Positions 14,515 to 28,607 of a stretch of DNA of 64,000 nt are shown here, piece by piece. Position 1 is the first letter of the stretch, and every line of letters starts with the position of its first letter. The stretch is from a virus. A model generated the notes under the pieces. It saw only the letters and a list, made by a program, of their open reading frames with translations. It made no database searches and had not been told where the DNA came from. Made by a program: the position numbers and the translations under genes. The stretch covers positions 1 to 64,000 of IMG/VR virus record IMGVR_UViG_3300048599_000388. One strand, given 5' to 3'.

Positions 14515-14518
14515 CTTT

Positions 14519-15007: not shown

Positions 15008-15579
15008 TGTCCACCCACTTTCTCACCATCCCCTATTTGCAACCGTCTCACCCGTGTCAATTTCTGTTCCACCCATCGCGCCACCTCTTCAATAACGATC
15101 TTCCCTTTTCCGTAACTTGCGTGAGCGATTGCGGGCATTCCATCTCTACTCCTGAGAAATGCTGCTGCATGGCCATTCGGTCGGTCGGATTTAAAGGTAA
15201 AGAATCCGAGGTCCAGGTTTTGTACCGAACGCAACTTATCAGGAATAATGGTAGAAGACCAACCAGCACCACCTTCAGCCATAATCCACGATTGCGTGAG
15301 CTGCACGCCTGGAATACCAGCCCACTTAGCCGCCAGCCATAGATAAGACGTGCAATTAAGCCCTTTTTTTGGGTCATCATATGGGGGTCCTAATTTGGCA
15401 TCTCGATACGGAAGTTCTTTTGACGCCAAAAATCTGAGCTGTGATTCCCATGCGCGTTCGTAAACAGGGTGTAACGCGTATGCCGTCCCAATGTCAAGCG
15501 TAACAAATGATAAGGGTAAGACAATACAGAGTCCCCACAATAGCAGCCGTCGCCGCCATATTGCCTTTCGTGATTTCAT
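15004..15579 (-). CDS. NlpC/P60-like cell-wall peptidase with N-terminal membrane anchor (endolysin candidate)
   Basis: Hydrophobic N-terminus; NCTSYLW Cys context; GHAAAFL and AHAS His motifs. Confidence 0.5.
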   Translation of the reverse strand: MKSRKAIWRRRLLLWGLCIVLPLSFVTLDIGTAYALHPVYERAWESQLRFLASKELPYRDAKLGPPYDDPKKGLNCTSYLWLAAKWAGIPGVQLTQSWIMAEGGAGWSSTIIPDKLRSVQNLDLGFFTFKSDRPNGHAAAFLRSRDGMPAIAHASYGKGKIVIEEVARWVEQKLTRVRRLQIGDGEKVGGQ

Positions 15580-15841
15580 CGCACCAATCTCCCGGAGTTA
15601 TCCAATCAACGAATCGTGTGCCCCCAGACAGCACCAGCAACCCAATGGTCGCCGCGACTATCCGGAGAATCACATAACGATAGACTCCATATGCCTCTCC
15701 TTCCGGCATGTAATCTGGGGCAATTTGGAGTAAATGAAGCACTATTTTGTACCCGATGGACAGCGCAATGAACCAACGGATAAAGGAACTGTTCCACAGA
15801 GCTGGACCGATACTGAGCAGCTTTACTAATTTGTCTTTCAT
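15494..15841 (-). CDS. Multi-TM membrane protein (holin candidate)
   Basis: 115 aa with about three TM helices, immediately upstream of the peptidase (86-nt overlap). Confidence 0.4.
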   Translation of the reverse strand: MKDKLVKLLSIGPALWNSSFIRWFIALSIGYKIVLHLLQIAPDYMPEGEAYGVYRYVILRIVAATIGLLVLSGGTRFVDWITPGDWCDEITKGNMAATAAIVGTLYCLTLIICYA

Positions 15842-15905: not shown

Positions 15906-16856
15906 TCATCCACACTTCCCGCACCCACACCCTTTACGCTCCACCCCCATACCTCGAATCTTGTGCGCCAGATCAATACTGTTACGCGCCGCGCTTATCC
16001 CGACACCTTCACCACTCAAGGCTTTCTCGTAAACCACAGTGTGGAGGTTATTAAACCCGTCAGAGAAGTCAATGTTGGCCCCATCCACTGTCAACCGTCG
16101 ATATGCACGCACGTCACCTGCTAATCCGTGAATCGCAAGCATCTCTGGGGACGTTGACAAGTTCCATGTCACGCCTGCATTAGTAAAGGCCGTAAAACCA
16201 GACATTAAATCACTCTCTTTATGATGAAGCTCTGTGTGCTGCTCTTTTCCGAATATCCATGCGAGCACATCAAGAAAATGGATCCCAATGTTAGCAGCCA
16301 ACCCGCCACTCAAATTTTCGTTCCCCTTCCACGAATGGAAAAACCAAGGGCCACGCACGGTCGTGTATTCGAGCTGGACATCGAAAATGTGGGATGGATT
16401 ACGTTTCAACGTTTCGTCAACAGACCATTTTAATTCTTTGATCCGCTCGTGCTCCCGCAACTGCATGACCGTGAATACGCGTTTGCCAGTCTCTTGCTCC
16501 AGTTCCAAGAGCCCATCCAAGTTGTGCGGCATAATGACGAGCGGCTTCTCGCAAATCACGTTACAACCGTTTCGCAGAGCGTACCGAATATGGGCATCGT
16601 GCAAATGATTCGGAGTCGCTATACTCACCCACTCGATTGGATTGCCGTCACGCCTACATTTATCCAGGAATCTGTCGAACCGCTCGAATTGCGTGAAAAA
16701 CGCACAGTCCAAAAAATACGAGTCGAGCACCCCGCAATTGTCGTAGGGGTCCAGCGCAGCGACGAGATTGTTGCCAGTCGCCTTAATCGCCTTCATATGG
16801 CGTGGAGCAACATATCCGGATGCACCGAAAAGAGCGAAATTAATTGGATTGTTCAT
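15906..16856 (-). CDS. Gfo/Idh/MocA oxidoreductase, WbpB/GnnA-like UDP-sugar 3-dehydrogenase candidate
   Basis: NFALFGASGYVAPRHMKAIK Rossmann N-terminus, ICEKPL, NIGIHFLD; 316 aa. Confidence 0.7.
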   Translation of the reverse strand: MNNPINFALFGASGYVAPRHMKAIKATGNNLVAALDPYDNCGVLDSYFLDCAFFTQFERFDRFLDKCRRDGNPIEWVSIATPNHLHDAHIRYALRNGCNVICEKPLVIMPHNLDGLLELEQETGKRVFTVMQLREHERIKELKWSVDETLKRNPSHIFDVQLEYTTVRGPWFFHSWKGNENLSGGLAANIGIHFLDVLAWIFGKEQHTELHHKESDLMSGFTAFTNAGVTWNLSTSPEMLAIHGLAGDVRAYRRLTVDGANIDFSDGFNNLHTVVYEKALSGEGVGISAARNSIDLAHKIRGMGVERKGCGCGKCG

Positions 16857-16864
16857 GGAATTCC

Positions 16865-16881
16865 TTTGTAAAATTTACAAA
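16865..16881. promoter_or_regulatory. Palindrome TTTGTAAAATTTACAAA (copy 1 of 4)
   Basis: Perfect palindrome ending 9 nt upstream of the oxidoreductase ATG. Confidence 0.6.
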
Positions 16882-16889
16882 AAACACAA

Positions 16890-17120
16890 CTATTTTTGAT
16901 AGCCCAAATCTTCAATGTCAACTCGTGCCCACTGAGCCAGAGGGTAAAATATCTCTTTACCTTCGGCACTAAAGAATTTCATAAACCCCAGATGGATGTA
17001 AACCTTTTCAATCTCAACAACAGACCTCGCATAAGTAAATCGAATCTCTTTTGGCTCTTGGACAACCCCAAGTTCTTCGTGCGTCCAAAATAATACTGCA
17101 AATTTTTTCATTACACTCAT
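16890..17120 (-). CDS. Hypothetical protein
   Basis: Co-oriented ORF. Confidence 0.45.
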   Translation of the reverse strand: MSVMKKFAVLFWTHEELGVVQEPKEIRFTYARSVVEIEKVYIHLGFMKFFSAEGKEIFYPLAQWARVDIEDLGYQK

Positions 17121-17149
17121 TTTGTTGTCCTCAACTTATTTATTCTGAA

Positions 17150-17234
17150 CCTTGGGGCGGGACTCGAACCCGCTCATCTATTTTTAGCACTAGTAACCTA
17201 CTCACAGCGCCCAGATTCCGCTACTGGCCCAAGG
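17150..17234 (-). tRNA. tRNA-like gene, 85 nt, isotype unresolved (non-canonical core)
   Basis: Perfect 7-bp acceptor CCTTGGG/CCCAAGG and canonical T-arm GCGGG-TTCGAGT-CCCGC; D-like AGCG-GAATCTGGG-CGCT; I could not fold a standard anticodon arm; no encoded CCA. Confidence 0.5.
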
Positions 17235-17237
17235 GGG

Positions 17238-17426
17238 TTATATATCGTACCATTTTGGCAATCTCCAGCCACGGTATTGGATGTACAAAGTCGATTCAAT
17301 GACAGCATTCATAAGATGCGCTCTTGGCAACCATCCCCCTATTATGATGTCCGGGTCTCCTGTTGTAGCCTCGTAATACATGGCCATAATCAGGATTGTG
17401 GATTCTCGCCAATCTTCGTACATCAT
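17238..17426 (-). CDS. Small protein, paralog of 18473..18751
   Basis: Shared YE-WRE..L.AM...T.G motif; ATGA overlap with the upstream acetyltransferase. Confidence 0.45.
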   Translation of the reverse strand: MMYEDWRESTILIMAMYYEATTGDPDIIIGGWLPRAHLMNAVIESTLYIQYRGWRLPKWYDI

Positions 17427-17923
17427 ACTTTCTTCACCATCTTATCCACACGTACCATGATGCGCGCAGGATTGCCAGCCACTGTGGAACCGCTTGGCAC
17501 GTCCTTGGTTACGACCGCACCAGCCGCAACGAAGCTGCGCTCGTGCAAGGTAATACCGGGTAATATTGTTGCATTTGCGCCTATGGACACATCGTCTTCA
17601 ACAACTGTCTTCTCAGGTACAAACCGTTCTCTACTCGGTGGCTCACGGTCATTCGTGAACCGAACCCCAGGTCCAACAAAAACGCGATCTCCAATCGTCA
17701 CACCAGGCGGGATAAATACGTGACTCTGAATCAAACAATCCTCTCCAATGACAACGCCCTTCCCTATCTCCGTGAACGCACCAATTTTGGTCCGTGCCCC
17801 AATAGTGCATCCCCACAAATTGACTAAATTGGGTTGCGGTATTTTTACGTTTTGCTCAATTTCACATCGTTCGATGGGCATGAGAAACAATACACCTTTC
17901 TTTGGCATCTTCAATTCGTCCAT
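17423..17923 (-). CDS. Hexapeptide-repeat sugar N/O-acetyltransferase (WbpD/QdtC-like)
   Basis: Left-handed beta-helix repeats; GANATILPGITL..AAGAVVTKDVP..VAGNPARI. Confidence 0.75.
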   Translation of the reverse strand: MDELKMPKKGVLFLMPIERCEIEQNVKIPQPNLVNLWGCTIGARTKIGAFTEIGKGVVIGEDCLIQSHVFIPPGVTIGDRVFVGPGVRFTNDREPPSRERFVPEKTVVEDDVSIGANATILPGITLHERSFVAAGAVVTKDVPSGSTVAGNPARIMVRVDKMVKKV

Positions 17924-18467
17924 CTTCAGCCTTTAGACCATACGCCAACAAATACTCCGGGATTTGATCCCATATCCCTGGACACATCCAATTGTCAATC
18001 CAAACCATGTCCATAATTGATTTCAACTCAGCATCAGTGGCTTCTCTACATTCTCCAGATAGATGGTATCTGTCAATCGGGTCCTCAATCCAAAACGGGA
18101 CCGCCTCTTTATACCACCTTGAGCATTCCTGACACAGACCAACAGAGCCACAATCTTGATAGCACGTCATTGATTTTATTTCAGTTAAAAATGTCCTGAC
18201 GGACTGCTCAATTAACCTCAAATTTTCTTGTTGTTGTGAATATGACAAGGAGTCTTTATCTGGCAAAAATGGATAGTAAAAAACTGGACCATCAGGAGAT
18301 AGCAGGGCCTTAACAGTCCCTTTCGTGAACTTAAAAACAATCTGCTTATATAGGGATATCGGGGAGTCGTGTAATCTGGAATCTAATATATCCCCCCAAC
18401 GGCTAGTGTGCGTGGGCACTTCGGTGATCATTTCTATTGATTGCAAAACAGAAAATCTTGCATCCAT
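17862..18467 (-). CDS. Hypothetical protein (Cys-rich)
   Basis: 201-aa co-oriented ORF. Confidence 0.45.
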   Translation of the reverse strand: MDARFSVLQSIEMITEVPTHTSRWGDILDSRLHDSPISLYKQIVFKFTKGTVKALLSPDGPVFYYPFLPDKDSLSYSQQQENLRLIEQSVRTFLTEIKSMTCYQDCGSVGLCQECSRWYKEAVPFWIEDPIDRYHLSGECREATDAELKSIMDMVWIDNWMCPGIWDQIPEYLLAYGLKAEDGRIEDAKERCIVSHAHRTM

Positions 18468-18472
18468 ATGTT

Positions 18473-18751
18473 CTACCCCATATCAATCCATGCACGCTCT
18501 TCTGCAAACAGAATGTCGAGCCCATTACACATCGCCACTATTCCAGGGACGAACTCATACGCCCACAACCCCATAGCGCAAACTGGTTCATCAAATCCGT
18601 TTGTCACACTCCCTGCGCACCACATGGCCATTAGCGCGTCCTCTCGCCACGATTCATAGGTCACGTCCGTTATATGTCGCTTCACGTTCTCATCGTTCTC
18701 ATTCATCATGCTCATTCCCGCAAAAATTGTTGCGCCACCAAATCTGTTCAC
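18473..18751 (-). CDS. Small protein, paralog of 17238..17426
   Basis: TYESWREDALMAMW... motif; start probably at an internal Met (about 18706-18715). Confidence 0.4.
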   Translation of the reverse strand: MNRFGGATIFAGMSMMNENDENVKRHITDVTYESWREDALMAMWCAGSVTNGFDEPVCAMGLWAYEFVPGIVAMCNGLDILFAEERAWIDMG

Positions 18752-19463
18752 CGCGTTTCCGTTTGAACATTACGCTCGGCGTGTTTATTGGGTTTAAATA
18801 GCTGATATCTTGGCACGGTGCAATGGAATATTTCGGATGTTTCAATAATCGTTGGGTCATTTGATTGCCGGTTCCTGAGCCACACCTGAAGTTGTCGGAC
18901 CATTTCGAACCGTTCCCGTGTCCAATCGGTTCAAGTTCAAAATTGAGCGCCTCAAATAACTGACGCGTAGCGATGTATGCCTCATCAACATATCGACACG
19001 TTCCCCAGTTGCGTAGTAGCGTACATCCGATATTCATGGCAACAATACGCTCATCTGCGTCTCGTAACCGCTTAAAATGAGTCGTCACGCGTTCAAAAAA
19101 CCGGTCGCACGGCATACAGTCATCAGGCATGGATATCGCATACGCATAATGGAGAGAGCGCGTATAAGAGAGTAGGGTGTTTTTTGTCTTCCAAAAGCCC
19201 CGCACTCCATTATTCTGCGTATTTTTTATCAACACGACCTGATAACGCGCATATCCATTTTTTTGGCCATATACCCGGTCAATAGCAGCGTAATCGCTCA
19301 AACCCTTTGACGAACCATCGTCAAGAATGATGTGGACAACTCGGACGCGCATATCATCTCGATTAGCTTCCACATTCAACTTATCGCAAACCGACCGCAT
19401 CAGCCCACCACGGTTGAACGTCGGCGTGAGAAGGAGATGGGAGAATGTGGACGAGTCTGCCAT
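18699..19463 (-). CDS. GT-A (family 2-like) glycosyltransferase candidate
   Basis: LLLTPTFNRG ... HIILDDGSS. Confidence 0.45.
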   Translation of the reverse strand: MADSSTFSHLLLTPTFNRGGLMRSVCDKLNVEANRDDMRVRVVHIILDDGSSKGLSDYAAIDRVYGQKNGYARYQVVLIKNTQNNGVRGFWKTKNTLLSYTRSLHYAYAISMPDDCMPCDRFFERVTTHFKRLRDADERIVAMNIGCTLLRNWGTCRYVDEAYIATRQLFEALNFELEPIGHGNGSKWSDNFRCGSGTGNQMTQRLLKHPKYSIAPCQDISYLNPINTPSVMFKRKRGEQIWWRNNFCGNEHDE

Positions 19464-19490
19464 GGAGATGTCTTCCTGTCGTATGATACC

Positions 19491-20141
19491 CTACAATATC
19501 TTGCGCTTTTCCAATCTCTTCGCCTCACGCCACGTGTGGAGTTCGTTCAACGTCTTGAATATGGGTATGCCCATTTCTTGCGCAATCTCTATTTCCCTCT
19601 TTGTCCCTTTAGAGTCTTCCCAACCCTGGACGAGCAATACCGCATCAGACTTCAACAAATGCGCAATCCCCACACGCTGAAAGTCTTCAACAGGAATGTC
19701 TCGGACAACGGCCCACTCCCAATCGTTCCAAGGGCAATATGGATTATATCCAGACAGCACGAGGTCAATGCATACCCGCCGTCCCCTTCGGATATTTGCG
19801 GCCACGTCCATTATGTACCCACTGTAGGCACCAGCGACGTAAATGGTGTAAAGGCAATCATCAGGAATGTTGTGTTGTTTTTCTGTAGGAAACATGAGAC
19901 CTTTTCCCTCCATTTTGTCGCCCCAACCCCACGACTGTAGCCTGCCACTTGCAAAGGCGACAACCTCTTGATTGGAACAATCTTCCAACATGTCTTCTGG
20001 AATATCTACAGAAAGAAGACCTCCGTCCAAAAATCTATAAGTTAATTCGATAAGCCTTGGACTGACCTTAAAAATCTTCACACACTGACACGCCTCTGAA
20101 ATATCAAAATCAACCGGTCTCGCCGTCGCTAAATCTATCAT
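19491..20141 (-). CDS. DUF4406 / nucleoside 2-deoxyribosyltransferase-like protein with N-terminal extension
   Basis: IYVAGAYSG ... LLVQGWEDSKGTKREIEIAQEMGIPIF. Confidence 0.65.
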   Translation of the reverse strand: MIDLATARPVDFDISEACQCVKIFKVSPRLIELTYRFLDGGLLSVDIPEDMLEDCSNQEVVAFASGRLQSWGWGDKMEGKGLMFPTEKQHNIPDDCLYTIYVAGAYSGYIMDVAANIRRGRRVCIDLVLSGYNPYCPWNDWEWAVVRDIPVEDFQRVGIAHLLKSDAVLLVQGWEDSKGTKREIEIAQEMGIPIFKTLNELHTWREAKRLEKRKIL

Positions 20142-20620
20142 GATGCCATACCCCTCTTCCTTCTCCGTCTCTCAGCCCTGTTCCTGATTTCCATTTTAAA
20201 TTCCGGTTTGACATCCTCATCTCTCACCACTTCCCCTCGCAACCAGTCTCCTTGACCGCTCACGCGCACTTTGTGGAAATGGAGAGCCATGTTGGACATA
20301 TCGAATCGATGCTCTATACTCGCAAAATTCCCATCCGCGTCTTTCGCATACTCCCAGTATTCGGGTTCGTCTGGCTTAAACTCCATTTTGAATTCACCAC
20401 CAGACAGTACGGTATTAACAATCCCCGCGCCTTTGCCTGCCTGTAGTTTCGCAGACAGCGAAATGGTCGAGATATTGGTCTGAGACGAATCAGGCGAATC
20501 GACAATGGTTAACGTGGTCGTCTTGACCCGCATGACCAATTTGTCCACACGGATACGGTATCGCTCTATCTGCAGAATGCCCGGGGAGAAAATGACGGTG
20601 TTCATATGCCTACTCCCCAC
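20138..20620 (-). CDS. Hypothetical protein
   Basis: Co-oriented; ATGA-type overlap with neighbour. Confidence 0.45.
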   Translation of the reverse strand: MGSRHMNTVIFSPGILQIERYRIRVDKLVMRVKTTTLTIVDSPDSSQTNISTISLSAKLQAGKGAGIVNTVLSGGEFKMEFKPDEPEYWEYAKDADGNFASIEHRFDMSNMALHFHKVRVSGQGDWLRGEVVRDEDVKPEFKMEIRNRAERRRRKRGMAS

Positions 20621-20907
20621 AAACCCAATTCGCTATGAATTTTTGCATATTGACTATCTCTTTCGGAATATTTCCGTGCATAAGTCCCATAGGTTTGCAA
20701 CTGTTTTGCCAATACAAGGCGTAACTTCTGTGTTGTAATGTCTTCAATAACCTCCCATGGAATCACTGACTCAAACTGTGCTTTGGTAGGACTGATAAAC
20801 TCAAAATGAGTCAATTCCGTCAACCAGACATGCCGAATGTTGACACATTGGCAACATAGTAAATGGCAATCCTCTAATCTCAACGCTTGACGCTGTCCTG
20901 TTGTCAT
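20602..20907 (-). CDS. Hypothetical protein
   Basis: Co-oriented ORF. Confidence 0.4.
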   Translation of the reverse strand: MTTGQRQALRLEDCHLLCCQCVNIRHVWLTELTHFEFISPTKAQFESVIPWEVIEDITTQKLRLVLAKQLQTYGTYARKYSERDSQYAKIHSELGLWGVGI

Positions 20908-20913
20908 GATGCT

Positions 20914-22572
20914 CTATTTCCCTTTCCTCACCACCCACACGCACCGCGTACCGTCCCCAGTTACTCGACTCTTCTCCACAACCACACCCATCCATTTCCA
21001 CAGATTCTCGTAGTCATGGATAAAACAATGGTGCGCCAGTTTAACCTTACCAGCACGAGCCGCTTTGCTACCGATGAATGACGAAACGAACAGAGTCCCG
21101 CCATTTTTCAAGACGCGCAAATGTTCTTTTGTGAACCTATCAAGGTCTTCCGGAATGACGTGGAGCATGACATCGGTCGAAACGACCACATCGAATACTC
21201 CGTCATCGTAACTCAGCGAAATACCGTCCCAGAAATCAGGCAATTTCTCGTGCGTGCGTTCCCGATATTTGTAACGTGCCGCATTGGAAAAATCGCACGC
21301 TGTGTAACCATTGACGAATTGCAACCCCAAATCCTTCAGCGCTAAAAACGTGTTACCAATTCCGCAGCCCACCTCCAAGACACGCTGAGTGACCATGCCG
21401 TTCTGAGCACCAGTCGCTTCCAAAATACCATTGCAGAGCCATGTGGTCTCGTCACGCATCACGTTGTTGGACAAACGCGCTCCGTCTGGGAACTGTTCCC
21501 AGAAATGACGGGGTGAATAGGATCCTGCAGGACGGACAGGTAGAGCGACACCCATGCCTTTATTTTTTTCACTCCGTCCCTCCTCCACATCTTCCACCAC
21601 ATACCCGCACGCGCTCCCCTTGTTTAGCTTCAGTTTGCCCTTGCCGTAGCAATAAAAACGTAGCGCTTCCCACAACCGAGTCCCTATTGCTTCATACGAG
21701 TGGTGTTTCTCTGCCCATTCCCGGGTGTCAACCTGTAAATTTTCCAGTTCGTTGTCAGTCAGGCTCAACAATTCAACCAATTTGTCCAACATCTCGTCTT
21801 CTGTGTTGGTGACCTGCAGGCCACATTTGCCGTAATCAGCCTCGTAAAGCTCGTAATCAGCAAAATTCGTTACGACTATTTTACCAAGGGCCGCACATTC
21901 CAGAGCCGTAATACCCCAGGCACCATGCTTCTTGCCCAGGTGCGTCGGCGCTAGGCATTCGATATAAATGTCGCAATCACCCATACGCTGAATGCTCTGC
22001 TCCCAAGGCACATGCGTTGAATCGGTCGTGAACTCGAATCGATTCCGCAGTTGTGGATAACTTTTCAGCCTGTCGATAACTCGTAGGACCGCTGGTCCTC
22101 CTTTGTCTTTAAACGACCGCGGATGATGTCCAATCCTGATTTTGTTCCCCGTTATGCCGAAGCGCGGCTTGATGGATTTTAAATCGATAGCAGGCAGCAC
22201 CCACACCTCGTTTTTGGCCCCAAGTCCAAGCAGGTCGCCAGTCTGAATAATAGAACAGTCCACAAATGGGTTGAACACCGAATTAACCGCCTTGGCATTC
22301 CCCCGATACTGCGCTCCTCCATGGAATACGCACATGTGCTCGGCAGCACGTCCAACCAAGTTGCGCGAATGCATGGATATGACGATGCGCGATTTGTCGC
22401 ACAGCCCTTTCAGGTCTTTCCGTTCGACCTGACGCGCTTGTTCCGTGTAATGGAACCCATGCAGATTAAGCGTGATAGCATCAGCATCAATGCCGATGGA
22501 ACGGAGGGCCTTGCAATAGACATGACCGGCATTCGCCCAGTCATTTTCTGAAACTAACAGGACTTCAGGCAT
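20914..22572 (-). CDS. Fusion: GT-B-like glycosyltransferase N-domain plus class I SAM methyltransferase C-domain
   Basis: VLEVGCGIGNTFLAL ... FDVVVSTDVMLHV ... LKNGGTLFV; the N-terminal ~330 aa are GT-like. Confidence 0.65.
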   Translation of the reverse strand: MPEVLLVSENDWANAGHVYCKALRSIGIDADAITLNLHGFHYTEQARQVERKDLKGLCDKSRIVISMHSRNLVGRAAEHMCVFHGGAQYRGNAKAVNSVFNPFVDCSIIQTGDLLGLGAKNEVWVLPAIDLKSIKPRFGITGNKIRIGHHPRSFKDKGGPAVLRVIDRLKSYPQLRNRFEFTTDSTHVPWEQSIQRMGDCDIYIECLAPTHLGKKHGAWGITALECAALGKIVVTNFADYELYEADYGKCGLQVTNTEDEMLDKLVELLSLTDNELENLQVDTREWAEKHHSYEAIGTRLWEALRFYCYGKGKLKLNKGSACGYVVEDVEEGRSEKNKGMGVALPVRPAGSYSPRHFWEQFPDGARLSNNVMRDETTWLCNGILEATGAQNGMVTQRVLEVGCGIGNTFLALKDLGLQFVNGYTACDFSNAARYKYRERTHEKLPDFWDGISLSYDDGVFDVVVSTDVMLHVIPEDLDRFTKEHLRVLKNGGTLFVSSFIGSKAARAGKVKLAHHCFIHDYENLWKWMGVVVEKSRVTGDGTRCVWVVRKGK

Positions 22573-22756
22573 TCGGTGCCTCCGGAGGATACATCGGAAT
22601 TATTTTGATTTCATTATAAACAAAAGCATCATCACCTTTGCATGTTTGTTCAAAAGCACTTTTTCTTTCAGGAGTCGAGACAAAAAAAGGACGCCATTTC
22701 TCTCGAAAATTTCGCAGTTTTTTACGTAAGACCTTTGTCCTGTGACTCACATCCAT
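22565..22756 (-). CDS. Hypothetical small protein
   Basis: Co-oriented ORF. Confidence 0.35.
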   Translation of the reverse strand: MDVSHRTKVLRKKLRNFREKWRPFFVSTPERKSAFEQTCKGDDAFVYNEIKIIPMYPPEAPNA

Positions 22757-23686
22757 TTATACATTCCTCATCTTCAAAAACTTCGCTGGATTCCCAACCA
22801 CCACTTCACCAGCCCCCACATCATTCAGCACGTTCGCTCCGATTCCAACAAGCGCACCATCACCCACCGTCACATGCTCTCGTATGCTGACCGATGGTCC
22901 AATCCATACGTGATTCCCTATCGTCACGCTGCCAGATATCTCAGCCATGGCAATTATCAGCGTGTCCATGCCAATCTGTACGTTATGCGCAACAAACACG
23001 TGATCATCCAACTTGCTCCACGGACCTATGCGCGTATCGTCAACGGTTCCACGACAAATTACTGTGCCAGAACCAATTTCCACGTGGTCGCCAAAAACCA
23101 CCTTGCCTGTATGCGGAATCCTGAAGGGATGACCGCGCTCGTCATACTCAAAACCGCAGCCGTCTTCACCTATCACCGAATGACTCTTAATCAAGCACCC
23201 CTGATTAATCACAGCGTTATTCACACTCACATGATTCAGTATACGCGTATTGTCACCAATAATAACGTCCGGTCCAATAACAGAATAGTGACCAATGGAA
23301 ACATTATCGCCAATGTCAGCAGTCGAGTCGATAATCGCTGTCTCTGCAATCCCGTTGATGAGATTGGTGCAAAAAAACTGACTGACTACTCGGGCGAAAG
23401 AGAGGCGGGGGTTCTGAACGGGTAAGCAGGAACAACGTGGCATAATATCGGTCCCCGTCCACCCACTCTTTACTAGATTCGTCACATTCGGAATTATGGC
23501 CAATATGTTCCCAACAAACTCCAGTTTCCTTTTTACCTCTGGCGTCCATTCCCTCACAAATACCACGCCCCCACTCACCAACTTATCCAGGCTGACCGGC
23601 CGATACACATCAATATCCGGTCCATACAGGGGGAGTCGAAGGAACGACGCTATTTGTGAAGCCTTGACCATGGGGAACGTCCTCAT
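22757..23686 (-). CDS. LpxD-like hexapeptide N-acyltransferase
   Basis: Extended hexapeptide repeats; N-terminal FLRLPLYGPDIDVYRPVSLDKL..VVFV resembles the LpxD N-domain. Confidence 0.65.
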   Translation of the reverse strand: MRTFPMVKASQIASFLRLPLYGPDIDVYRPVSLDKLVSGGVVFVREWTPEVKRKLEFVGNILAIIPNVTNLVKSGWTGTDIMPRCSCLPVQNPRLSFARVVSQFFCTNLINGIAETAIIDSTADIGDNVSIGHYSVIGPDVIIGDNTRILNHVSVNNAVINQGCLIKSHSVIGEDGCGFEYDERGHPFRIPHTGKVVFGDHVEIGSGTVICRGTVDDTRIGPWSKLDDHVFVAHNVQIGMDTLIIAMAEISGSVTIGNHVWIGPSVSIREHVTVGDGALVGIGANVLNDVGAGEVVVGNPAKFLKMRNV

Positions 23687-23696
23687 ACAGAAACCA

Positions 23697-23924
23697 TCAA
23701 CATAGTCTATCTATTTCCTCTAGAATTTTGTCCTGTAAGTTACACCCACACTTGGAACACACGGGGAGGCCCTTTATACTAATGTCCGTCTTGGAATATG
23801 GCTTCGTTTGTTTTTTCAAATAAGCAACCATGAATCGGTTGTTTTGTAAACACCAATTTTTAAGACATTGCACAGAAACCACAGTAGTCGTGAAAGTATC
23901 TCTCATACCACCCACCTTATGCAC
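23697..23924 (-). CDS. Small hypothetical protein (probable start at MRDTF)
   Basis: Preceded by the repeated TGAGTGCATAAGGTGGGTGGT leader. Confidence 0.4.
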   Translation of the reverse strand: MHKVGGMRDTFTTTVVSVQCLKNWCLQNNRFMVAYLKKQTKPYSKTDISIKGLPVCSKCGCNLQDKILEEIDRLC

Positions 23925-24188
23925 TCATACGTGAGTGCTGCTCAACGAAAAATTCCTAAACCAAAAGCGCATGCATTTCGCAAACCAACTAAAACGAACC
24001 GGATGTGTTTCAGAAGTGTATCTCCAACAATGGCCATGGTTTATAGACGTACACTTTTGAAATACCGGATATTTTTCTCCAGTTATAGGGTCCACGTGAT
24101 ATTTATAAACAGCGCGACACAAATTTGACATGTAAACATTTTCTCGCCTGATGAACTTCTCGCAGTGAATACAAAATGTCCCTTCCAT
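23925..24188 (-). CDS. Small Cys-rich hypothetical protein
   Basis: ATAAGGTGGTGTG RBS block; CIHCEKF motif. Confidence 0.4.
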   Translation of the reverse strand: MEGTFCIHCEKFIRRENVYMSNLCRAVYKYHVDPITGEKYPVFQKCTSINHGHCWRYTSETHPVRFSWFAKCMRFWFRNFSLSSTHV

Positions 24189-24199
24189 CGCACACCACC

Positions 24200-24445
24200 T
24201 TATTTATATACCTCGTCCAATATCTTTCTGCATTCGGAAGAAAACTCATCTAGTTCGGCGTCAGAAACAGAGTCGAGCCCATATCCACAAACCTTATGCT
24301 CTGGACTCATGTTGCCAATATGCTTTTTGTCCGCCTCCGTAAGTCCAACAGCAACAATGCATTTCTCTGTTGCTGTAAAGGCATGAATTTCTCCTGTCAG
24401 CCTGTGTTTTATGAAAACTATCATCACACCACCCACCTTATGCAC
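24200..24445 (-). CDS. Small hypothetical protein (probable start at MIVF)
   Basis: Preceded by the same TGAGTGCATAAGGTGGGTGGT leader as 23697..23924. Confidence 0.4.
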   Translation of the reverse strand: MHKVGGVMIVFIKHRLTGEIHAFTATEKCIVAVGLTEADKKHIGNMSPEHKVCGYGLDSVSDAELDEFSSECRKILDEVYK

Positions 24446-25089
24446 TCAAAAATCTCAGCAAACTCTGTCCCGCCAACCACTCCATTGACACGTGCCCAGG
24501 ACCAAAGAAAATCCGTCTTGAAATACGGTCGCTGCGCCTGAGATTTGTATTCGGCCAGCACGCTGATTTTCTTGTCCACGTGAGCAGCGTTTAACCGTAC
24601 AATCACGTCTTTCTGCACGAGGTCCACACAGTTCCACGGATCCTGATACCCTAGCACCACGTTCCATTTGAATGCACGAACCGCCTCCTCGTAAATCACT
24701 CGATGGTCCTGGTGCACGTCCTGAGAACACGGACAAAATACAATGTGCGGTGCCCACCCACTTCTCACTGTCACGAGATATTCGAGTATGTCCTGGCGAT
24801 ATTCCTGCAGCATGTCAACAGGGTATTTAAATACCGTGCGTGCCCACGTCTCGTCTAACCCCATTACTCCACAAGCATTCTCAAACTCGTGCCTCAAGAT
24901 ATCCGGAGGGTACTGCTCGCTCACGCGCTCGTCACACGTGGAAAACACAATCGTATTAACCGATGCCCCAGAATCCAAGAGCCTCGCAATGGTCCCACCA
25001 CACCCGAGCTCATAATCGTCAGTGTGGGGAGATAGGGCGAGTACGCGTAGCGGAGTGGTACGCGAAGAGTGGGCGAAGATGTCAAACAT
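24424..25089 (-). CDS. PIG-L/LmbE-family de-N-acetylase
   Basis: LALSPHTDDYELGCGGTIARL and DVHQDHR motifs. Confidence 0.8.
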   Translation of the reverse strand: MFDIFAHSSRTTPLRVLALSPHTDDYELGCGGTIARLLDSGASVNTIVFSTCDERVSEQYPPDILRHEFENACGVMGLDETWARTVFKYPVDMLQEYRQDILEYLVTVRSGWAPHIVFCPCSQDVHQDHRVIYEEAVRAFKWNVVLGYQDPWNCVDLVQKDVIVRLNAAHVDKKISVLAEYKSQAQRPYFKTDFLWSWARVNGVVGGTEFAEIFECIRWVV

Positions 25090-26116
25090 GGAGTGCCTCG
25101 TTTGTTATGAGTTCGGACAAGTGTGCAGTCATCTGTTGCACCCGGATTGTGTTGGTATGGAAACGGCGGACCTGAGTTTGGCCGTTCATTGCTTTAACGT
25201 GTCTGTAAGCACTTTTTTTCAAACAGAAAGACAACTTATCCATCAGAATGTCATGGTCGTCATACGCCTCATAATCAAAAGAATTAAAAAGACCCAGCGC
25301 CCCCATATCCTTCGGGGGCCCGTCCGTCATATACAACGCTTCCGCTGCCATCGCCTCGAATATCCGGATATTCACGCTTCTGTGCTGGTCACACGACCCT
25401 ATCACTATTTTGGACCTCTTGAGGATATCAACGTATTGTTCATGGTAAATTCCGGTTCCTGTATATTCCAGGCCATTCGGGTTGTCTACAAATTTGAGGC
25501 AGGTGTTATACTGAGGATTATCGGCAGCCCATTTATTTAGCGCCTCAAACAGCGCCGGCCTGTTCGGATACTCAAACGAATGACCACTCATAATCGCGGT
25601 CACGTCAATGTCCTTCTTGTCGTAATCACTTAAACTTGTGCCGTACATGCCCCAATCCACGCTGAAAGGAAGCCAGACAAAGCGTGTATGCGCCGGTAAC
25701 CTTCCTACAGCCTGTCTCTCTCTCGCCACGTCCACAAATGCACGTTGAGACATAAACACGATGTCGAAATCATGGCGCCTGATAAACTCATCTTTATAAT
25801 CGTAATGTCGCGGGAAATAGTCGGTGACAACGCACGCGCTCGGGATGTCCACCTCTGCCATCCCCTTCCAATTCTTCGTGTATTGCAGACCACACGCCAG
25901 AATCACGTCAACGTTGTCTTTACCTCCAGCATTATCGACCAAGTCGCACACGCGCTTACGCGTCATCCCTTCATCTCGAAACGCGATGTGTTGGCGTGCA
26001 ATTTCCTGGACAAAGTGTTCTTTCGTCCACGCTTTAGAACGGAGAAACGAGCGAGCGAGAAGAAGGATGCGGAGGGGGAGTGACATACGTACCTCATTCC
26101 TTATGTTTAATTTCAA
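25082..26116 (-). CDS. Glycosyltransferase candidate (CgeB/GT1-type C-domain)
   Basis: IYHEQYVDILKRSKIVIGS..NIRIFEAMAAEALYMTD. Confidence 0.45.
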   Translation of the reverse strand: MKLNIRNEVRMSLPLRILLLARSFLRSKAWTKEHFVQEIARQHIAFRDEGMTRKRVCDLVDNAGGKDNVDVILACGLQYTKNWKGMAEVDIPSACVVTDYFPRHYDYKDEFIRRHDFDIVFMSQRAFVDVARERQAVGRLPAHTRFVWLPFSVDWGMYGTSLSDYDKKDIDVTAIMSGHSFEYPNRPALFEALNKWAADNPQYNTCLKFVDNPNGLEYTGTGIYHEQYVDILKRSKIVIGSCDQHRSVNIRIFEAMAAEALYMTDGPPKDMGALGLFNSFDYEAYDDHDILMDKLSFCLKKSAYRHVKAMNGQTQVRRFHTNTIRVQQMTAHLSELITNEALHV

Positions 26117-26297
26117 ATTTTATCAGGGAAATCTGTTTCCGTATTTCTAAGCAAAAATCCATCATGGTGAACATTGTCACTATTGCACAAAAGGAGATAA
26201 TCCCGATGAATACCATGTTTGGATCAGATCTATAGAAACCAAGAATAATGCTACACAACAAAATTAGTGTTGCTAAACATGTCGAAGAAAACAACAT
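26094..26297 (-). CDS. Small two-TM membrane protein
   Basis: 67 aa, hydrophobic. Confidence 0.4.
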   Translation of the reverse strand: MLFSSTCLATLILLCSIILGFYRSDPNMVFIGIISFCAIVTMFTMMDFCLEIRKQISLIKFEIKHKE

Positions 26298-26308
26298 TTG
26301 TTTTATCC

Positions 26309-26551
26309 TTATTTTTTTTGAAAAAGTTTACCGTTTGCCGTCATGACCTCCTGGCCAAGAGACCACTGCCACTTCACCCGAAATTCTGCTTTACATCCAG
26401 GACAGATAACCACTTTAGCACCGTGTACAGGATGACATTTACGTTTAACCGTAGATTGACATTTAGGACATTTTTGGCGTTCCATTGTTTTATCACCCTT
26501 CCCCTTTTTTGTAAATTTTACAAAACCAATGCCTCGTAAAATCCTCTCCAC
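26309..26551 (-). CDS. Zinc-ribbon protein (probable start 26485, MERQKCPKC)
   Basis: CPKC...CPGC; a GGGGAAGGGTGA RBS precedes the internal ATG. Confidence 0.5.
   Translation of the reverse strand: MERILRGIGFVKFTKKGKGDKTMERQKCPKCQSTVKRKCHPVHGAKVVICPGCKAEFRVKWQWSLGQEVMTANGKLFQKK
26507..26525. promoter_or_regulatory. Palindrome TTTTGTAAATTTTACAAAA (copy 2 of 4)
   Basis: Overlaps the stop of the GT4 gene; about 24 nt upstream of the zinc-ribbon ATG. Confidence 0.6.
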
Positions 26552-27840
26552 ACCGTGTCCATGTTGAATCTCTGACGCATGTTGACGCGGTCCTGCACGC
26601 CATTTTCTGATTCCCAGGCTTCCACTATGTCACGTGCCCATCGGTCGAATCGCTCTCGTTCCGTGATTCCATCGCCTACGCGCTTACGCTTCGGCCCAAA
26701 ATCCAAATACATAGACCCATCACGACCATTAACCCCAGAACCCACATTCGACCCTTCCCGCCCCACTTCGTGCAACGCGTTCACGCTATCGTTCAGCACG
26801 CATAAACAACCGCTCGACAAACTCACTTCTGGATATACCAGCCCGAACGATTCAGCGTGTGTCGGATAAATAAAAATGCTCGAACACTGCATGAGTTCTC
26901 TTAACATTCGCTTGGGGATACCTGATTCGTATTGTGGATATCTGAAACGACTCGTAAAAATCAACTCTTTTTCACTTAGCCCGTTATTTTTTCCTATCCT
27001 CTGCCACTTGTCGATGTCTTCCGTCCGCCTTAACCGCGTCACCCACTGATTCGCAATTACCAGACAGACCGACAGCCCCATATCTTTAAAACGAGAAAAC
27101 AGGCTGATTAATGTAGACAACCCCTTTTGAGTCAACCGGTCGCTGGATGCTGGATATACCTGAACCATGTCGGCACTCATCACCCCTGGATACTCGTCAA
27201 CGAACGCGCAGCTTTCAGCCCCCCACTCATTCCATGTGCGCAAATCCTTGACATGGGGTATAGATACAAAGTGCCCATCATCTCCCGACCCTATCCCAAA
27301 CGCCATGCGCACCTTATCCCCATCCGCTTCTGTAGGATAAACAACCGTATGATTCCCCTCATACCGACCGATGTCCCACCAGTCACATCGACCAACACAG
27401 ACCGAATGCACCCAATGGAACCATTTGATAGAGCGCGCATGGGCGTTCACCGCGCAAAACCGCCTAATTGCTTCTGCGTATGGCAAGAAATACGGCGAAA
27501 ATATCCAATCTTGAGTAAAAACAACAGACGGGATGCATCGCTTGAACAGGACGTGTAGAGCCTCAACAATGCGATTCACTAACTGCTCATGAACACTTGA
27601 CAGTTCGTCTACACGCTCATATTTCTCAGGCTCTTCCAATGACGGAATTTTTGGATGCACGGGGAACCCGTCCCGACTCACCAACGGATAATTTGATGTC
27701 TCTCCCCCCCACCTATCACTCACGGCCACTTCAATACGCACATTGTTCCTCAAGCACATCGCTATCTGGTCCTGAACGCATCCGCACAATGAATAACCAG
27801 AATGGTACGCATCAAAATTGGTGAGGATAAGAATGGGCAT
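26518..27840 (-). CDS. GT4-family (GT-B) glycosyltransferase
   Basis: PTHAESFGLVYPEVSLSSGC = E-x7-E region. Confidence 0.6.
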   Translation of the reverse strand: MPILILTNFDAYHSGYSLCGCVQDQIAMCLRNNVRIEVAVSDRWGGETSNYPLVSRDGFPVHPKIPSLEEPEKYERVDELSSVHEQLVNRIVEALHVLFKRCIPSVVFTQDWIFSPYFLPYAEAIRRFCAVNAHARSIKWFHWVHSVCVGRCDWWDIGRYEGNHTVVYPTEADGDKVRMAFGIGSGDDGHFVSIPHVKDLRTWNEWGAESCAFVDEYPGVMSADMVQVYPASSDRLTQKGLSTLISLFSRFKDMGLSVCLVIANQWVTRLRRTEDIDKWQRIGKNNGLSEKELIFTSRFRYPQYESGIPKRMLRELMQCSSIFIYPTHAESFGLVYPEVSLSSGCLCVLNDSVNALHEVGREGSNVGSGVNGRDGSMYLDFGPKRKRVGDGITERERFDRWARDIVEAWESENGVQDRVNMRQRFNMDTVWRGFYEALVL

Positions 27841-27901: not shown

Positions 27902-28288
27902 CTATTTAAAAAACAACGAATAAATCATGAAAAATAACACCATGATTGCCGTTGCCGCATTCAACCAGCCCGCATGCGCCTGACTCCATTGGGATGCCTC
28001 AGTCTCCCGACTTTTCGTCTCAGCCTTGGCATCATTCCTCATCTCTTTCAACTCTTCGTCGTGGTCGTCCAGCCGGCGCACATGGATACCCTGCTCTCGT
28101 TCAACAGCCCGCAACCTGTCATACACCCCGTCCATTTCACCACGACACCGCTCGACACAACTCTTGTTCGTTCCGTTCAGCCCCTCAATCAATTTCGTGA
28201 GCGCATCAATTTTGTTGTTCACGTTTTCAAACAATGCATTCAAAAATTTCTCGAAATGGGGGGGTAGATCAGGAATTTGGATGCTCAT
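27902..28288 (-). CDS. Coiled-coil protein with C-terminal TM anchor
   Basis: C-terminal AGWLNAATAIMVLFFMIYSLFF. Confidence 0.45.
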   Translation of the reverse strand: MSIQIPDLPPHFEKFLNALFENVNNKIDALTKLIEGLNGTNKSCVERCRGEMDGVYDRLRAVEREQGIHVRRLDDHDEELKEMRNDAKAETKSRETEASQWSQAHAGWLNAATAIMVLFFMIYSLFFK

Positions 28289-28337
28289 TGTGCCGCTCTG
28301 ATTTTCAGAAAAATACTAATTACAAGCCAAGAGAGGT

Positions 28338-28607
28338 TTACCAAAAAAAGGGGAATAAGGCTAGGGGAAATATAGTAATAATCTGGATTGCAAGTCTCTT
28401 GACTCGCTCGCCTTCCCGAACGACTGCCAGATTAACCGGAGACGCGCTCGCATAGCCAAATGCAATCTCTTTAACATCAAACTCGCTCTCAATGACAACG
28501 TTCCCGCCGTCCACATTTTTATCCAACCCACGAATCACGTCAACAAGGGACGCGTCTCCGCCTTCTGTGTAATAATTGATAGTGGGTGGTAGATGGAAAC
28601 GGGCCAT
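28338..28607 (-). CDS. Hypothetical protein
   Basis: Co-oriented ORF. Confidence 0.4.
   Translation of the reverse strand: MARFHLPPTINYYTEGGDASLVDVIRGLDKNVDGGNVVIESEFDVKEIAFGYASASPVNLAVVREGERVKRLAIQIITIFPLALFPFFW

Follow-up and report, generated by a model that had tools for sequence, protein, structure and literature searches.

Virus-encoded glycosylation that runs without an export system is already established in mycobacteriophages, chloroviruses and mimiviruses. Glycosyltransferases (GTs) encoded by the mycobacteriophages Che8, Corndog and Myrna glycosylate the virion (Freeman 2023, as cited in PMC12619734 and PMC12363180), PBCV-1 encodes A064R, a GT-GT-O-methyltransferase that assembles the terminal part of the capsid glycan before methylating it, and glycogene clusters have been described for Mimiviridae and CroV (PMC9614988). 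Here we analyzed a 12-kb island of sugar enzymes at positions 15906-27840 of a 64,000-nt stretch of viral DNA (positions 1 to 64,000 of IMG/VR record IMGVR_UViG_3300048599_000388, hereafter the window), carried by a ~92-kb temperate siphophage whose host is a Desulfomonilaceae bacterium, an uncultured relative of sulfate-reducers. We tentatively read the island as an accessory module with which the phage would decorate its own virion proteins, in the cytoplasm, with an amino-sugar glycan that is short, O-methylated and N-acyl-remodelled; the predicted enzymology is well supported, and the acceptor is what we infer. A preliminary description of the island, made from the letters alone, had not recognised it as a described system. 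Its gene composition does appear undescribed, combining a WbpB/3-N-acetyltransferase branch that lacks the aminotransferase, a PIG-L and LpxD-like pair, and a GT4-methyltransferase fusion, but the kind of system has precedents in mycobacteriophages, giant viruses and cyanophages.

As described in the papers that cite Freeman 2023, the mycobacteriophage systems resemble the island in having soluble phage GTs, no export machinery and cytoplasmic assembly, and in being accessory to some lineages only. Their glycans are carried on Ser/Thr-rich C-terminal extensions of capsid or tail-tube proteins, none of which is present on the structural proteins here. The hosts there are actinobacterial, whereas ours is a Gram-negative member of the Desulfobacterota, and virion glycosylation is established there, whereas here it is predicted from genes. 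The island also adds a diamino-sugar and N-acyl remodelling branch (WbpB, 3-N-acetyltransferase, PIG-L, LpxD-like). The mycobacteriophage systems reportedly include methyltransferases. When the GT4-methyltransferase fusion was used as a tblastn query against 50,697 deposited phage genomes, it found no sequence relative, including among the GTs of the Che8 gp110/Corndog gp38 cluster; megablast of the island likewise matched no deposited phage, and tblastn with the WbpB and LpxD-like proteins returned only distant or contaminant-like matches. With the giant viruses the island shares virus-encoded nucleotide-sugar tailoring enzymes and GTs, a GT-methyltransferase fusion that caps, or here would cap, the added sugar, and a cytoplasmic synthesis independent of the endoplasmic reticulum and of export, the target in those viruses being the virion surface. 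The GT domain of our fusion is of the GT-B/GT4 type and domain 1 of A064R is GT-A, so the shared architecture is convergent and not homologous. The giant viruses also differ in their eukaryotic hosts and in their sugars, which are viosamine, bacillosamine, rhamnose and Kdo, as opposed to the predicted 2,3-diamino-type branch of the island.

The donor chemistry recalls the Wbp/Wlb pathway (WbpA/B/E/D/I of P. aeruginosa, WlbA-D of Bordetella), of which the island holds a WbpB homolog and a WlbB/WbpD-related 3-N-acetyltransferase, with the DegT/WbpE step found in a related phage and Epimerase_2 (WbpI-like) proteins in other related islands. The phage itself lacks WbpA, WbpE and WbpI, its acetyltransferase is nearer to WxcM/QdtC than to WlbB, and the product would be used by phage GTs with no O-antigen export system. 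The Raetz route to GlcN3N-containing lipid A proceeds through GnnA/GnnB, LpxA, LpxC and LpxD, and the island parallels it in 3-dehydrogenation, (transamination), left-handed beta-helix (LbH) transfer to N3, N2 de-N-acetylation and LpxD-like N-acylation. Its deacetylase is however of the PIG-L/LmbE type and not LpxC, LpxA, LpxH, LpxB and LpxK are absent, the LpxD-like protein falls below equivalog cutoffs, and the island has four GTs that lipid A does not need. The same deacetylate-then-reacylate logic is known from MshB/BshB and teicoplanin Orf2*, in which a GT4 enzyme, an LmbE-type deacetylase and acylation are combined.

Phage DNA glycosylation clusters (the T4 alpha/beta-GTs, the arabinosyl-5-hydroxycytosine (5hoC) system of RB69/DLP3 (PMC13326640), and methyltransferase (MT)/5mYOX/GT clusters) are similar in having multiple GT-A and GT-B enzymes, no export genes and sometimes sugar-nucleotide tailoring enzymes or a place near structural genes, and this phage carries a C5-cytosine methyltransferase (C5-MTase), ParB-like proteins and a dCMP deaminase elsewhere; they differ in that the whole genome here has no ThyS, 5mYOX or TET and the GTs do not lie beside the C5-MTase. 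Large phage-borne sets of GTs and nucleotide-sugar enzymes also occur in the cyanomyoviruses P-SSM2, S-SCSM1 and S-SCSM2R, as lipopolysaccharide (LPS)-like/cell-wall gene clusters of unknown target (PMC12801897). Those are lytic cyanobacterial myoviruses with other enzyme families, whereas the present island is a compact, lineage-conserved module in a temperate siphophage. By hydropathy scan, the island contains none of the membrane components of classical seroconversion (Gtr, Oac, Wzy/Iap).

A phage-borne island of predicted soluble sugar enzymes

The island genes are densely packed on the minus strand and lie, as the preliminary description had it, between the tail and lysis modules (Table 1). 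The window also contains an XkdF-type protease, a major capsid protein, a 1310-aa tape measure, tail proteins, a portal, a MuF-like protein, an integrase and ParB-like proteins, and a dCMP deaminase (14519-14908, minus strand) is embedded in the lysis cassette. We viewed every called gene of the ~92-kb phage together with ~6-8 kb of host DNA on each side. Exact-protein look-ups located the same phage sequence in two Joint Genome Institute (JGI) metagenomes (3300048577 and 3300048598): a 207,801-bp contig has the phage integrated beside host chemotaxis and histidine-kinase genes, and a 92,114-bp contig carries the circular-form junction that is also present in the window. The phage inserts at the 3' end of a host tRNA-Pro(CGG) gene. 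The 52-bp attachment core is the same in the circular and integrated forms (attR, L114 13299-13350; attL, L002 5989-6040), which shows that the island sits within a bona fide temperate phage, and a host-flank protein is 93% identical to one in a Desulfomonilaceae metagenome-assembled genome (JBGSLQ01).

The preliminary description had considered that the island might be an assembly chimera, in which a host polysaccharide locus was mis-joined to a phage. Close bacterial homologs do exist for the island enzymes, but the island is 100% identical between the integrated-form (208-kb) and circular-form (92-kb) contigs, which come from different samples, and its GC content, skew and codon usage are the same as in the rest of the phage. 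The module furthermore occupies the same position in at least four diverged phages from unrelated datasets, and its signature GT is encoded on 117 IMG/VR contigs. This evidence refutes a chimera, whose chance we put as negligible, and the island is genuinely phage-borne.

Table 1. Positions of the island genes, interleaved small open reading frames (ORFs) and flanking features in the window. Core and accessory refer to the comparison with four related phages. aa, amino acids; SAM, S-adenosylmethionine; RBS, ribosome-binding site; TM, transmembrane.
Feature	Window position	Strand	Remarks
440-aa GT-B/GT4-like glycosyltransferase	26518-27840	-	core; orthologs in L005, L006, L008, L009, 34-38% identity
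334-aa GT-B transferase (Glyco_trans_1_2, CgeB-like)	25082-26086	-	core; orthologs 4/4; PF13524 E = 2.7e-13
PIG-L/LmbE-family de-N-acetylase	24424-25089	-	accessory; orthologs in L005, L009; PF02585 E = 3.6e-16
LpxD-like LbH N-acyltransferase, 304 aa	22757-23671	-	accessory, 3/4 relatives
552-aa fusion: GT-B/GT4 (~aa 1-320) and class-I SAM methyltransferase (~aa 370-550)	20914-22572	-	core
216-aa DUF4406/nucleoside 2-deoxyribosyltransferase-like protein	19491-20141	-	accessory, ortholog in L006 only (40% identity)
254-aa probable GT-A glycosyltransferase	18699-19463	-	core; orthologs in 4/4 relatives
152-aa LbH 3-N-acetyltransferase (QdtC/WxcM/WlbB-like)	17423-17881	-	core; orthologs 50-64% identity, 4/4 relatives
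WbpB-type UDP-sugar 3-dehydrogenase	15906-16856	-	accessory, 3/4 relatives, orthologs 50-55% identity
Zn-ribbon-like ORF (CPKC...CPGC)	26309-26551	-	sub-threshold Zn-ribbon Pfam matches; no homolog in relatives
67-aa ORF, two TM-like segments	26094-26297	-	hydropathy scan; no ortholog in relatives
Orphan ORF between PIG-L and LpxD-like genes	24200-24424	-	no orthologs, no Pfam
Orphan ORF between PIG-L and LpxD-like genes	23925-24188	-	no orthologs, no Pfam
Orphan ORF between PIG-L and LpxD-like genes	23697-23906	-	no orthologs, no Pfam
63-aa orphan ORF	22565-22756	-	gene call; no ortholog or family
101-aa orphan ORF	20602-20907	-
155-aa orphan ORF	20138-20605	-
78-aa orphan ORF	18473-18709	-	no orthologs or families
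201-aa orphan ORF	17862-18467	-	no orthologs or families
62-aa orphan ORF	17238-17426	-	flanks tRNA-like element
76-aa orphan ORF	16890-17120	-	flanks tRNA-like element
Degenerate class-II (Ser/Leu-like) tRNA-like element, 87 nt	17149-17235	-	only sizeable gap of the island
Palindrome copy, TTTGTAAA(A/T)TTTACAAA	26508-26524		between the stop of the 440-aa GT and the next ORF
Second in-island palindrome copy	16865-16881		directly upstream of the WbpB RBS
Upstream flank: DUF5000-containing tail protein	29478-31418	-	last large structural gene before the island
Downstream flank: lysis cassette	13381-15841	-	DUF350 membrane protein, NlpC/P60-like endolysin homolog, TM ORFs, lipoprotein
attP core, 52 bp	4735-4786		identical to the 3' half of host tRNA-Pro(CGG); integrated and circular forms compared

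All nine ORFs named in the preliminary description exist on the minus strand at coordinates that are exact or within 45 nt, three called genes being shorter at their upper coordinate (17881 and not 17923, 23671 and not 23686, and 26086 and not 26116). The claim of at least nine carbohydrate enzymes holds for eight of them, which can be supported by profile and structure evidence. The ninth, the DUF4406 protein, matches PF14359 (E = 1e-8) and phrog_355 (E = 1.5e-16) over its C-terminal half only, has no PDB sequence match, and is not demonstrably linked to carbohydrate chemistry. Comparison with PHROGs assigned no function to the GTs or to the orphan ORFs.

The AlphaFold2 model of the 552-aa fusion (predicted local distance difference test score, pLDDT, 89.5) contains two domains. 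The N-terminal domain has a GT-B/GT4 fold whose Foldseek neighbours in the PDB are ManT (7qsg, the best), PimA, BshA, PglA and MshA, with HepE too, where ManT is the mycobacterial methylmannose polysaccharide enzyme and its product a cytoplasmic methylated glycan. The C-terminal domain, in which Pfam places a methyltransferase domain at aa 395-500, retrieves the sugar O-methyltransferase RebM and PH0226. The structural likeness is at the level of the GT4 fold (TM-score 0.4-0.6, 10-15% identity). Viral models in BFVD include an uncultured Caudovirales protein at a TM-score of 0.89, and Foldseek also retrieved GT-methyltransferase fusions of CroV, Klosneuvirus and Tupanvirus; no DNA glucosyltransferase was among the top PDB or viral structural matches of the GT domain. 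Both this N-terminal domain, by its structural neighbours, and the 440-aa protein, by its motif, can be placed among the retaining GT4 enzymes. In the 440-aa protein an EX7E motif is invariant across the family (E330/E338) and weakly matches the EX7E region of the BshA profile, the PF00534 match being sub-threshold (E = 0.002). In the relatives, the 334-aa GT-B gene lies directly upstream of the fusion or of the GT that corresponds to its N-terminal domain. Support for the 254-aa protein as a GT-A enzyme is moderate: it has no Pfam match of its own, but a 43%-identical homolog (P0123) carries PF00535 (Glycos_transf_2), a paralog in L009 matches PF00535 weakly, and a PDD motif is invariant in the family (D114-D115). 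Its low-confidence model (pLDDT 48.5, from a 3-sequence alignment) retrieves GT-A glycosyltransferases only and gives weak support.

Among the predicted tailoring enzymes, the protein at 15906-16856 is by sequence an unambiguous WbpB homolog, with Pfam GFO_IDH_MocA N- and C-domains and near full-length matches to WbpB in the PDB (3o9z, E = 1.5e-81; 3oa2, E = 2.2e-77). The 152-aa acetyltransferase (Pfam Hexapep, E = 1e-25) had been called WbpD-like. It is indeed of the 3-amino-sugar type and matches WlbB, a WbpD ortholog (3mqg, 2.8e-18), but it is nearer to the dTDP-sugar enzymes WxcM (WxcM-like 4mzu, 4e-27; also 7s43) and QdtC (3fs8, 4e-23); its closest solved relatives all N-acetylate the 3-amino group of nucleotide sugars. 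The protein at 22757-23671 is LpxD-like and, as judged by its scores (NF002060, 194.1 bits against a cutoff of 207; TIGR01853, 172.7 against 242.5), not an LpxD equivalog: only aa 113-303 align, the PDB LpxD match (4e-32) covers the LbH domain alone, and there is no recognisable N-terminal UDP-binding domain. The PIG-L protein is BshB1-like in NCBIfam, under the cutoff.

The preliminary description considered the pathway incomplete, with a 3-dehydrogenase and an N-acetyltransferase but no aminotransferase to link them, and the whole ~92-kb phage bears this out. No DegT/WbpE-type aminotransferase was found in the window or the rest of the genome, including in relaxed-threshold scans of unannotated proteins, and no phage gene has a Pfam match to UDP-glucose/GDP-mannose dehydrogenases or Epimerase_2, the families of the WbpA 6-dehydrogenase and WbpI 2-epimerase. 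Likewise, the lack of export and priming machinery extends beyond the island: no Wzx, Wzy, ABC exporter, WecA/WbaP-type priming enzyme or ligase is encoded in the whole phage or at either host junction, so the adjacent exporter or priming genes that might have lain outside the window are not there, and neither junction holds a host polysaccharide locus. The sole membrane ORF within the island is, as had been noted, the 67-aa protein with two predicted transmembrane segments.

Related islands in uncultured phages

Full-length homologs of the fusion (37-47% identity) occur on 58-92 kb phage contigs from unrelated datasets, and we compared four of these relatives (L005, L006, L008 and L009) with the island. 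A five-gene core comprising the 440-aa GT, the Glyco_trans_1_2 GT, the fusion, the 254-aa GT-A candidate and the 3-N-acetyltransferase is present in all four, downstream of tail genes and upstream of the portal. The remaining genes are accessory, with the LpxD-like and WbpB genes each found in three, PIG-L in two and DUF4406 in one. In L005, a DegT aminotransferase sits at the step that is missing here, between an acetyltransferase/PIG-L/LpxD-like block and WbpB, directly before WbpB. Island proteins are 34-55% identical to their counterparts in the relatives and the adjacent tail protein 34-38%, a similar divergence that argues for long co-residence and against recent capture.

A census built on the GT family of the fusion N-terminal domain found at least 117 IMG/VR contigs; 80 of these were retrieved, and 85 loci were analyzed. 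PIG-L (17 loci) and LpxD-like genes (20 loci) strongly co-occur and are often adjacent, which supports the N-acyl remodelling that the preliminary description had suggested, and trios of a GT4, a deacetylase and an N-acyltransferase form recurrent minimal sets (e.g. L043, L045-L048, L060 and L094). WbpB is present in 18 loci, usually with a small acetyltransferase and in about half of them with DegT, which occurs in nine of the 85 loci. Other neighbours include GT1, GT9, methyltransferases, UDP-GlcNAc (N-acetylglucosamine) 2-epimerases, dehydratases/epimerases and radical-SAM enzymes; Epimerase_2 is found in four proteins, and the islands adjoin capsid, portal and adaptor genes. No flippase-, polymerase- or priming-type protein was detected among the 1,613 ORFs of the 85 loci. 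The sole polytopic membrane proteins are two major facilitator superfamily transporters of ~378 aa that are 63% identical (L042 12020-13156; L061 5923-7062), and these might carry a small molecule derived from sugars into or out of the cell in the phages concerned.

Similar uncharacterised islands are thus common in uncultured phages, and the present locus is the visible tip of this class. Single-protein IMG/VR scans with the fusion or the capsid protein returned nothing, whereas alignment-based scans succeeded. A fusion-alignment scan of species-representative genomes found no relatives, and isolate prophages were therefore not available as comparators. When relatives were instead sought without bias through the portal protein, a core island GT lay near the portal in five of the nine closest ones whose upstream flank was complete and in none of 33 more distant ones.

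One related locus (L029 1-20936, on the 47-kb JGI contig Ga0392320_0000020) is a larger exporter-less sugar island of ~25 genes, which surrounds a standalone homolog of the fusion GT domain and adjoins a Volactin-like (actin-fold) gene. Its gene set includes GT9, GT1, GT-D-like, sulfotransferase-like, LicD, cytidylyltransferase, iron alcohol dehydrogenase (Fe-ADH), short-chain dehydrogenase/reductase (SDR), radical-SAM, WbpB-like and UDP-GlcNAc 2-epimerase proteins together with several hexapeptide transferases. Separately, tail proteins of two related phages (L008 3591-5285 and L010 199-2406) carry an mtd_2nd domain of the Bordetella phage major tropism determinant type, which hints at targets of a diversity-generating retroelement in this phage lineage.

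Proposed pathway and acceptor

All island enzymes are predicted to be soluble, and together they could form a self-contained cytoplasmic pathway with three layers. In donor tailoring, the WbpB-type enzyme would oxidise C3 of a UDP-N-acetylhexosamine or UDP-N-acetylhexosaminuronic acid, a DegT/WbpE-type aminotransferase borrowed from the host would add a 3-amino group, a step we propose because DegT is missing here and present in L005, and the QdtC/WlbB-type transferase would N-acetylate the 3-amine. In assembly, four GTs (the two GT-B enzymes, the GT-A candidate and the fusion's GT4 domain) would build a short oligosaccharide, which the fused SAM methyltransferase would O-methylate, probably on the capping sugar that its own GT domain adds. 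In N-acyl remodelling, PIG-L would strip an N-acetyl group and the LpxD-like transferase put a different acyl group on the freed amine, either on the nucleotide sugar, in a Raetz-pathway-like order, or after transfer, in the manner of mycothiol, bacillithiol and teicoplanin. Because lipid-carrier priming enzymes, flippases, polymerases and ligases are all missing from the phage, we propose that virion proteins receive the glycan in the cytoplasm while the late genes are expressed, such that the particle would glycosylate itself. Several features are consistent with a virion acceptor, which we rank first. The island genes run in the same direction as the tail and lysis/portal genes on either side, one palindromic intergenic motif is common to the island and the tail-fibre region, and the island belongs to a class in which the pathway is exporter-less and soluble throughout and the core is kept beside structural genes over deep divergence; the precedents in mycobacteriophages and giant viruses suggest the same by analogy.

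Several points weigh against a virion acceptor. The identity of the substrates, the order of steps, the provision of an aminotransferase by the host and, most of all, the acceptor are what we infer, the substrate assignments following from homology to families whose equivalog cutoffs in NCBIfam the LpxD-like and PIG-L proteins do not reach. The module is lineage-restricted and, given its distribution among portal relatives, dispensable for virion assembly. Neither the major capsid protein (51606-52553) nor any of the 26 structural-region proteins has a Ser/Thr-rich C-terminus, a weak test in that acceptor motifs may differ. In a phage genome this compact, closeness to structural genes counts for little as evidence, and promoter and terminator scans, at background level, were uninformative. 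It is common for soluble transferases of the GT4 and GT-A types to work on undecaprenyl-linked intermediates at the inner face of the membrane, so the absence of an exporter does not exclude a lipid-linked glycan that the host exports, and the temperate lifestyle makes lysogenic conversion plausible. The preliminary description had taken the missing exporter to argue for a cytoplasmic acceptor such as virion proteins, phage DNA or a nucleotide sugar; the exporter is indeed absent, but a host lipid-linked glycan is compatible with its absence and a DNA acceptor is disfavoured for want of ThyS and TET.

The main rival to attachment on the virion, which we consider rather unlikely, is remodelling of the host envelope, in which the phage enzymes would act on an undecaprenyl-linked O-antigen, capsule or LPS-core intermediate or on the nucleotide-sugar pool, and the host priming transferase, flippase or ABC exporter, polymerase and ligase would deliver the altered glycan to the surface. 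The changed receptor could then bring about superinfection exclusion in lysogens or reduce the number of progeny lost on debris. A temperate phage (integrase, attP in tRNA-Pro) of a Gram-negative host would suit this scheme, but the membrane parts of seroconversion (GtrA/B/type, polytopic O-acetyltransferase, Wzy, Iap) are missing, and the island lies away from the att site, embedded on the same strand among late structural and lysis genes, although its two operator-like palindromes could permit expression apart from the late operon. The chemistry is familiar from envelopes, WbpB, WlbB-type and LpxD-like proteins being classical LPS/O-antigen enzymes, and the GT4 structural neighbours PglA, PimA and HepE use lipid-linked or membrane acceptors; the need for a host aminotransferase likewise implies a host that already makes related 3-amino sugars. 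On the other hand, neither host junction holds a polysaccharide locus, and the host Wzx, Wzy and ligase would need to tolerate a four-transferase glycan. The distribution of the genes can be read both ways, since an island that is accessory and variable among relatives is typical of conversion modules, whereas a five-gene core retained beside structural genes over deep divergence is not easily reconciled with one.

A soluble cytoplasmic glycoconjugate or small molecule for host takeover, signalling or inhibition is a quite unlikely product, for example an oligosaccharide like the polymethylated polysaccharides or an N-acyl-glucosaminide made by a GT4, PIG-L and acyltransferase or ligase as in mycothiol, bacillithiol and teicoplanin. 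ManT, BshA and MshA are, in this order, structural matches of the fusion GT, the PIG-L protein is nearest to BshB1 and the 440-aa GT weakly matches the BshA profile, but the structural similarity of the fusion GT is at the level of the GT4 fold and not of substrate specificity. All of the enzymes are soluble and minimal GT4/deacetylase/N-acyltransferase trios recur in IMG/VR, whereas four GTs and dedicated diamino-sugar tailoring would rather suggest a structured oligosaccharide, as is more usual for glycans of surfaces or proteins, and no cysteine ligase and no inositol- or malate-related gene is present. To our knowledge, there is no precedent for phages making such metabolites. Still less probable, and disfavoured, is DNA hypermodification, in which the GTs would glycosylate a modified base against restriction or CRISPR, as in T4, RB69 and the metagenomic MT/5mYOX/GT clusters. 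The phage does encode a C5-cytosine DNA methylase (PF00145, E = 1e-24, at L032 11826-12602 in the replication module), two ParB-like proteins, a dCMP deaminase, a DCD-like protein and the deoxyribosyltransferase-like DUF4406 protein, but the methylase is ~45 kb from the island, whose neighbours are tail and lysis genes, so the GTs are not clustered with base-modifying enzymes. We know of no DNA glycosylation that involves WbpB, 3-N-acetyltransferase, PIG-L or LpxD-like tailoring. Nor was a thymidylate-synthase (ThyS) homolog, a dCMP hydroxymethylase or a TET/JBP dioxygenase detected in the complete ~92-kb genome, also when unannotated proteins were scanned at E<=1; Pfam on all called phage genes gave no hydroxylated-pyrimidine enzyme (ThyS, 5hoC synthase, 5mYOX/TET), PDB profile and sequence searches found no TET, JBP or AlkB similarity in the two unknown proteins beside the C5-MTase, and in the 150 neighbours of related islands there was no recurrent ThyS, TET or C5-methylase family. 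The fusion GT domain is, as described above, also unlike DNA glucosyltransferases. Pyle et al. name ParB and dCMP deaminase among the annotations that accompany GT pathways of the 5mYOX/ThyS type and describe GT clusters close to structural genes, but judge GT contigs without 5mYOX/ThyS less likely to be DNA pathways (bioRxiv 10.1101/2023.12.21.572611).

If the glycan is on the virion, phage self-glycosylation would extend past the mycobacteriophages to temperate phages of Gram-negative anaerobes and, if the census is a guide, to many uncultured phages, with a bearing on phage adsorption, particle stability and evasion of recognition by hosts or predators, and on how 'auxiliary' virome sugar genes are read, which are usually taken as modifying the host surface or DNA. 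Dependence on a host aminotransferase would exemplify a phage pathway completed by host metabolism. A broader form of the proposal, which we hold to be doubtful, is that exporter-less glycan islands form a widespread class by which phages that infect Gram-negative and environmental hosts cover their virions with O-methylated, N-acyl-remodelled diamino-sugar glycans while partly parasitising host amino-sugar metabolism; if true, this would be the first such virion glycosylation outside actinobacteriophages and giant viruses, and it would involve lipid-A-like N-acylation, a chemistry not known from any virus particle. Should the host surface be the target instead, the island would amount to lysogenic conversion of a cytoplasmic and unusually elaborate kind. 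The GT4-O-methyltransferase fusion and the combination of a PIG-L deacetylase with an LpxD-like N-acyltransferase are also new enzyme combinations for glycoengineering.

Small genes, palindromes and neighbouring features

About 12 small or orphan ORFs (62-201 aa; window 16890-26551) are interleaved between the enzyme genes (Table 1). None has a counterpart in the four relatives, where the enzyme genes abut or overlap; most retain in-frame codon bias, and none matches a Pfam family except the single Zn-ribbon-like ORF. The preliminary description, which had about ten such ORFs with several Zn-ribbons and a paralog pair, was thus right about the interleaving but not about the Zn-ribbons, and the paralogy is limited to two weak relations (E ~1e-3). 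The 101-aa ORF is weakly similar to the N-terminus of the DUF4406 protein. For the Zn-ribbon-like ORF, the true start is probably an ATG near 26485, with an RBS and ATG directly after a palindrome. We also observed that a 21-nt junction, TGAGTGCATAAGGTGGGTGGT, which contains a stop codon, a Shine-Dalgarno sequence and a start codon, is duplicated on the minus strand (23907-23927 and 24428-24448) at two gene boundaries that flank small-ORF insertions; the identity of the two copies suggests that small ORFs were inserted or duplicated along with a translational-coupling junction.

The tRNA-like gene of the preliminary description corresponds to a degenerate element. Its acceptor stem of 7 bp is perfect, as is its T-arm of canonical form (GCGGG-TTCGAGT-CCCGC), but its anticodon arm is defective, and it occupies the position of DegT in L005. 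We rejected a functional tRNA at this site: neither ARAGORN nor Rfam makes a call at normal thresholds, and a defective cloverleaf appears only with ARAGORN at -ps60. The element could be a decayed tRNA or the remnant of a recombination site.

A 17-21 nt palindrome, TTTTGTAAA(A/T)TTTACAAAA, is found at four sites that are all intergenic, giving 8 strand-hits in the window against 0.46 expected, with unrelated flanks. Besides the two copies in the island, one lies upstream of the tail-fibre genes (31920-31936) and one in the early plus-strand region (57173-57189). By its sequence the palindrome looks like an operator for a dimeric regulator, and the in-island copies may split the island into separately controlled units.

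In the replication module (L032 10001-12602, outside the window), two conserved unknown proteins of 297 and 312 aa precede the C5-methylase, the 297-aa protein belonging to a family with more than 130 homolog clusters and no Pfam or PDB match. An N6/N4-methylase-like gene lies in the window at 59827-60510, and these predicted genes make methylation of the phage DNA probable.

Between the tail genes and the island, and outside the island as defined, two small proteins (128 aa and 89 aa; 27902-28607, minus strand) have C-terminal hydrophobic tails, as in tail-anchored membrane proteins. A terminase large subunit was not recognised in the window or the rest of the ~92-kb genome, and no follow-up search was made. 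The order of modules is unusual, in that the portal and MuF-like genes (6996-10228) end a long minus-strand transcription unit and adjoin the integrase, ~40 kb away from the protease, scaffold and capsid genes (51606-54504). Directly upstream of the portal, a DCD/dUTPase-like protein (11401-12009, minus strand) is paired with a 308-aa conserved unknown (11969-12895), and the pair is kept in relatives. The start codon of the integrase is TTG.

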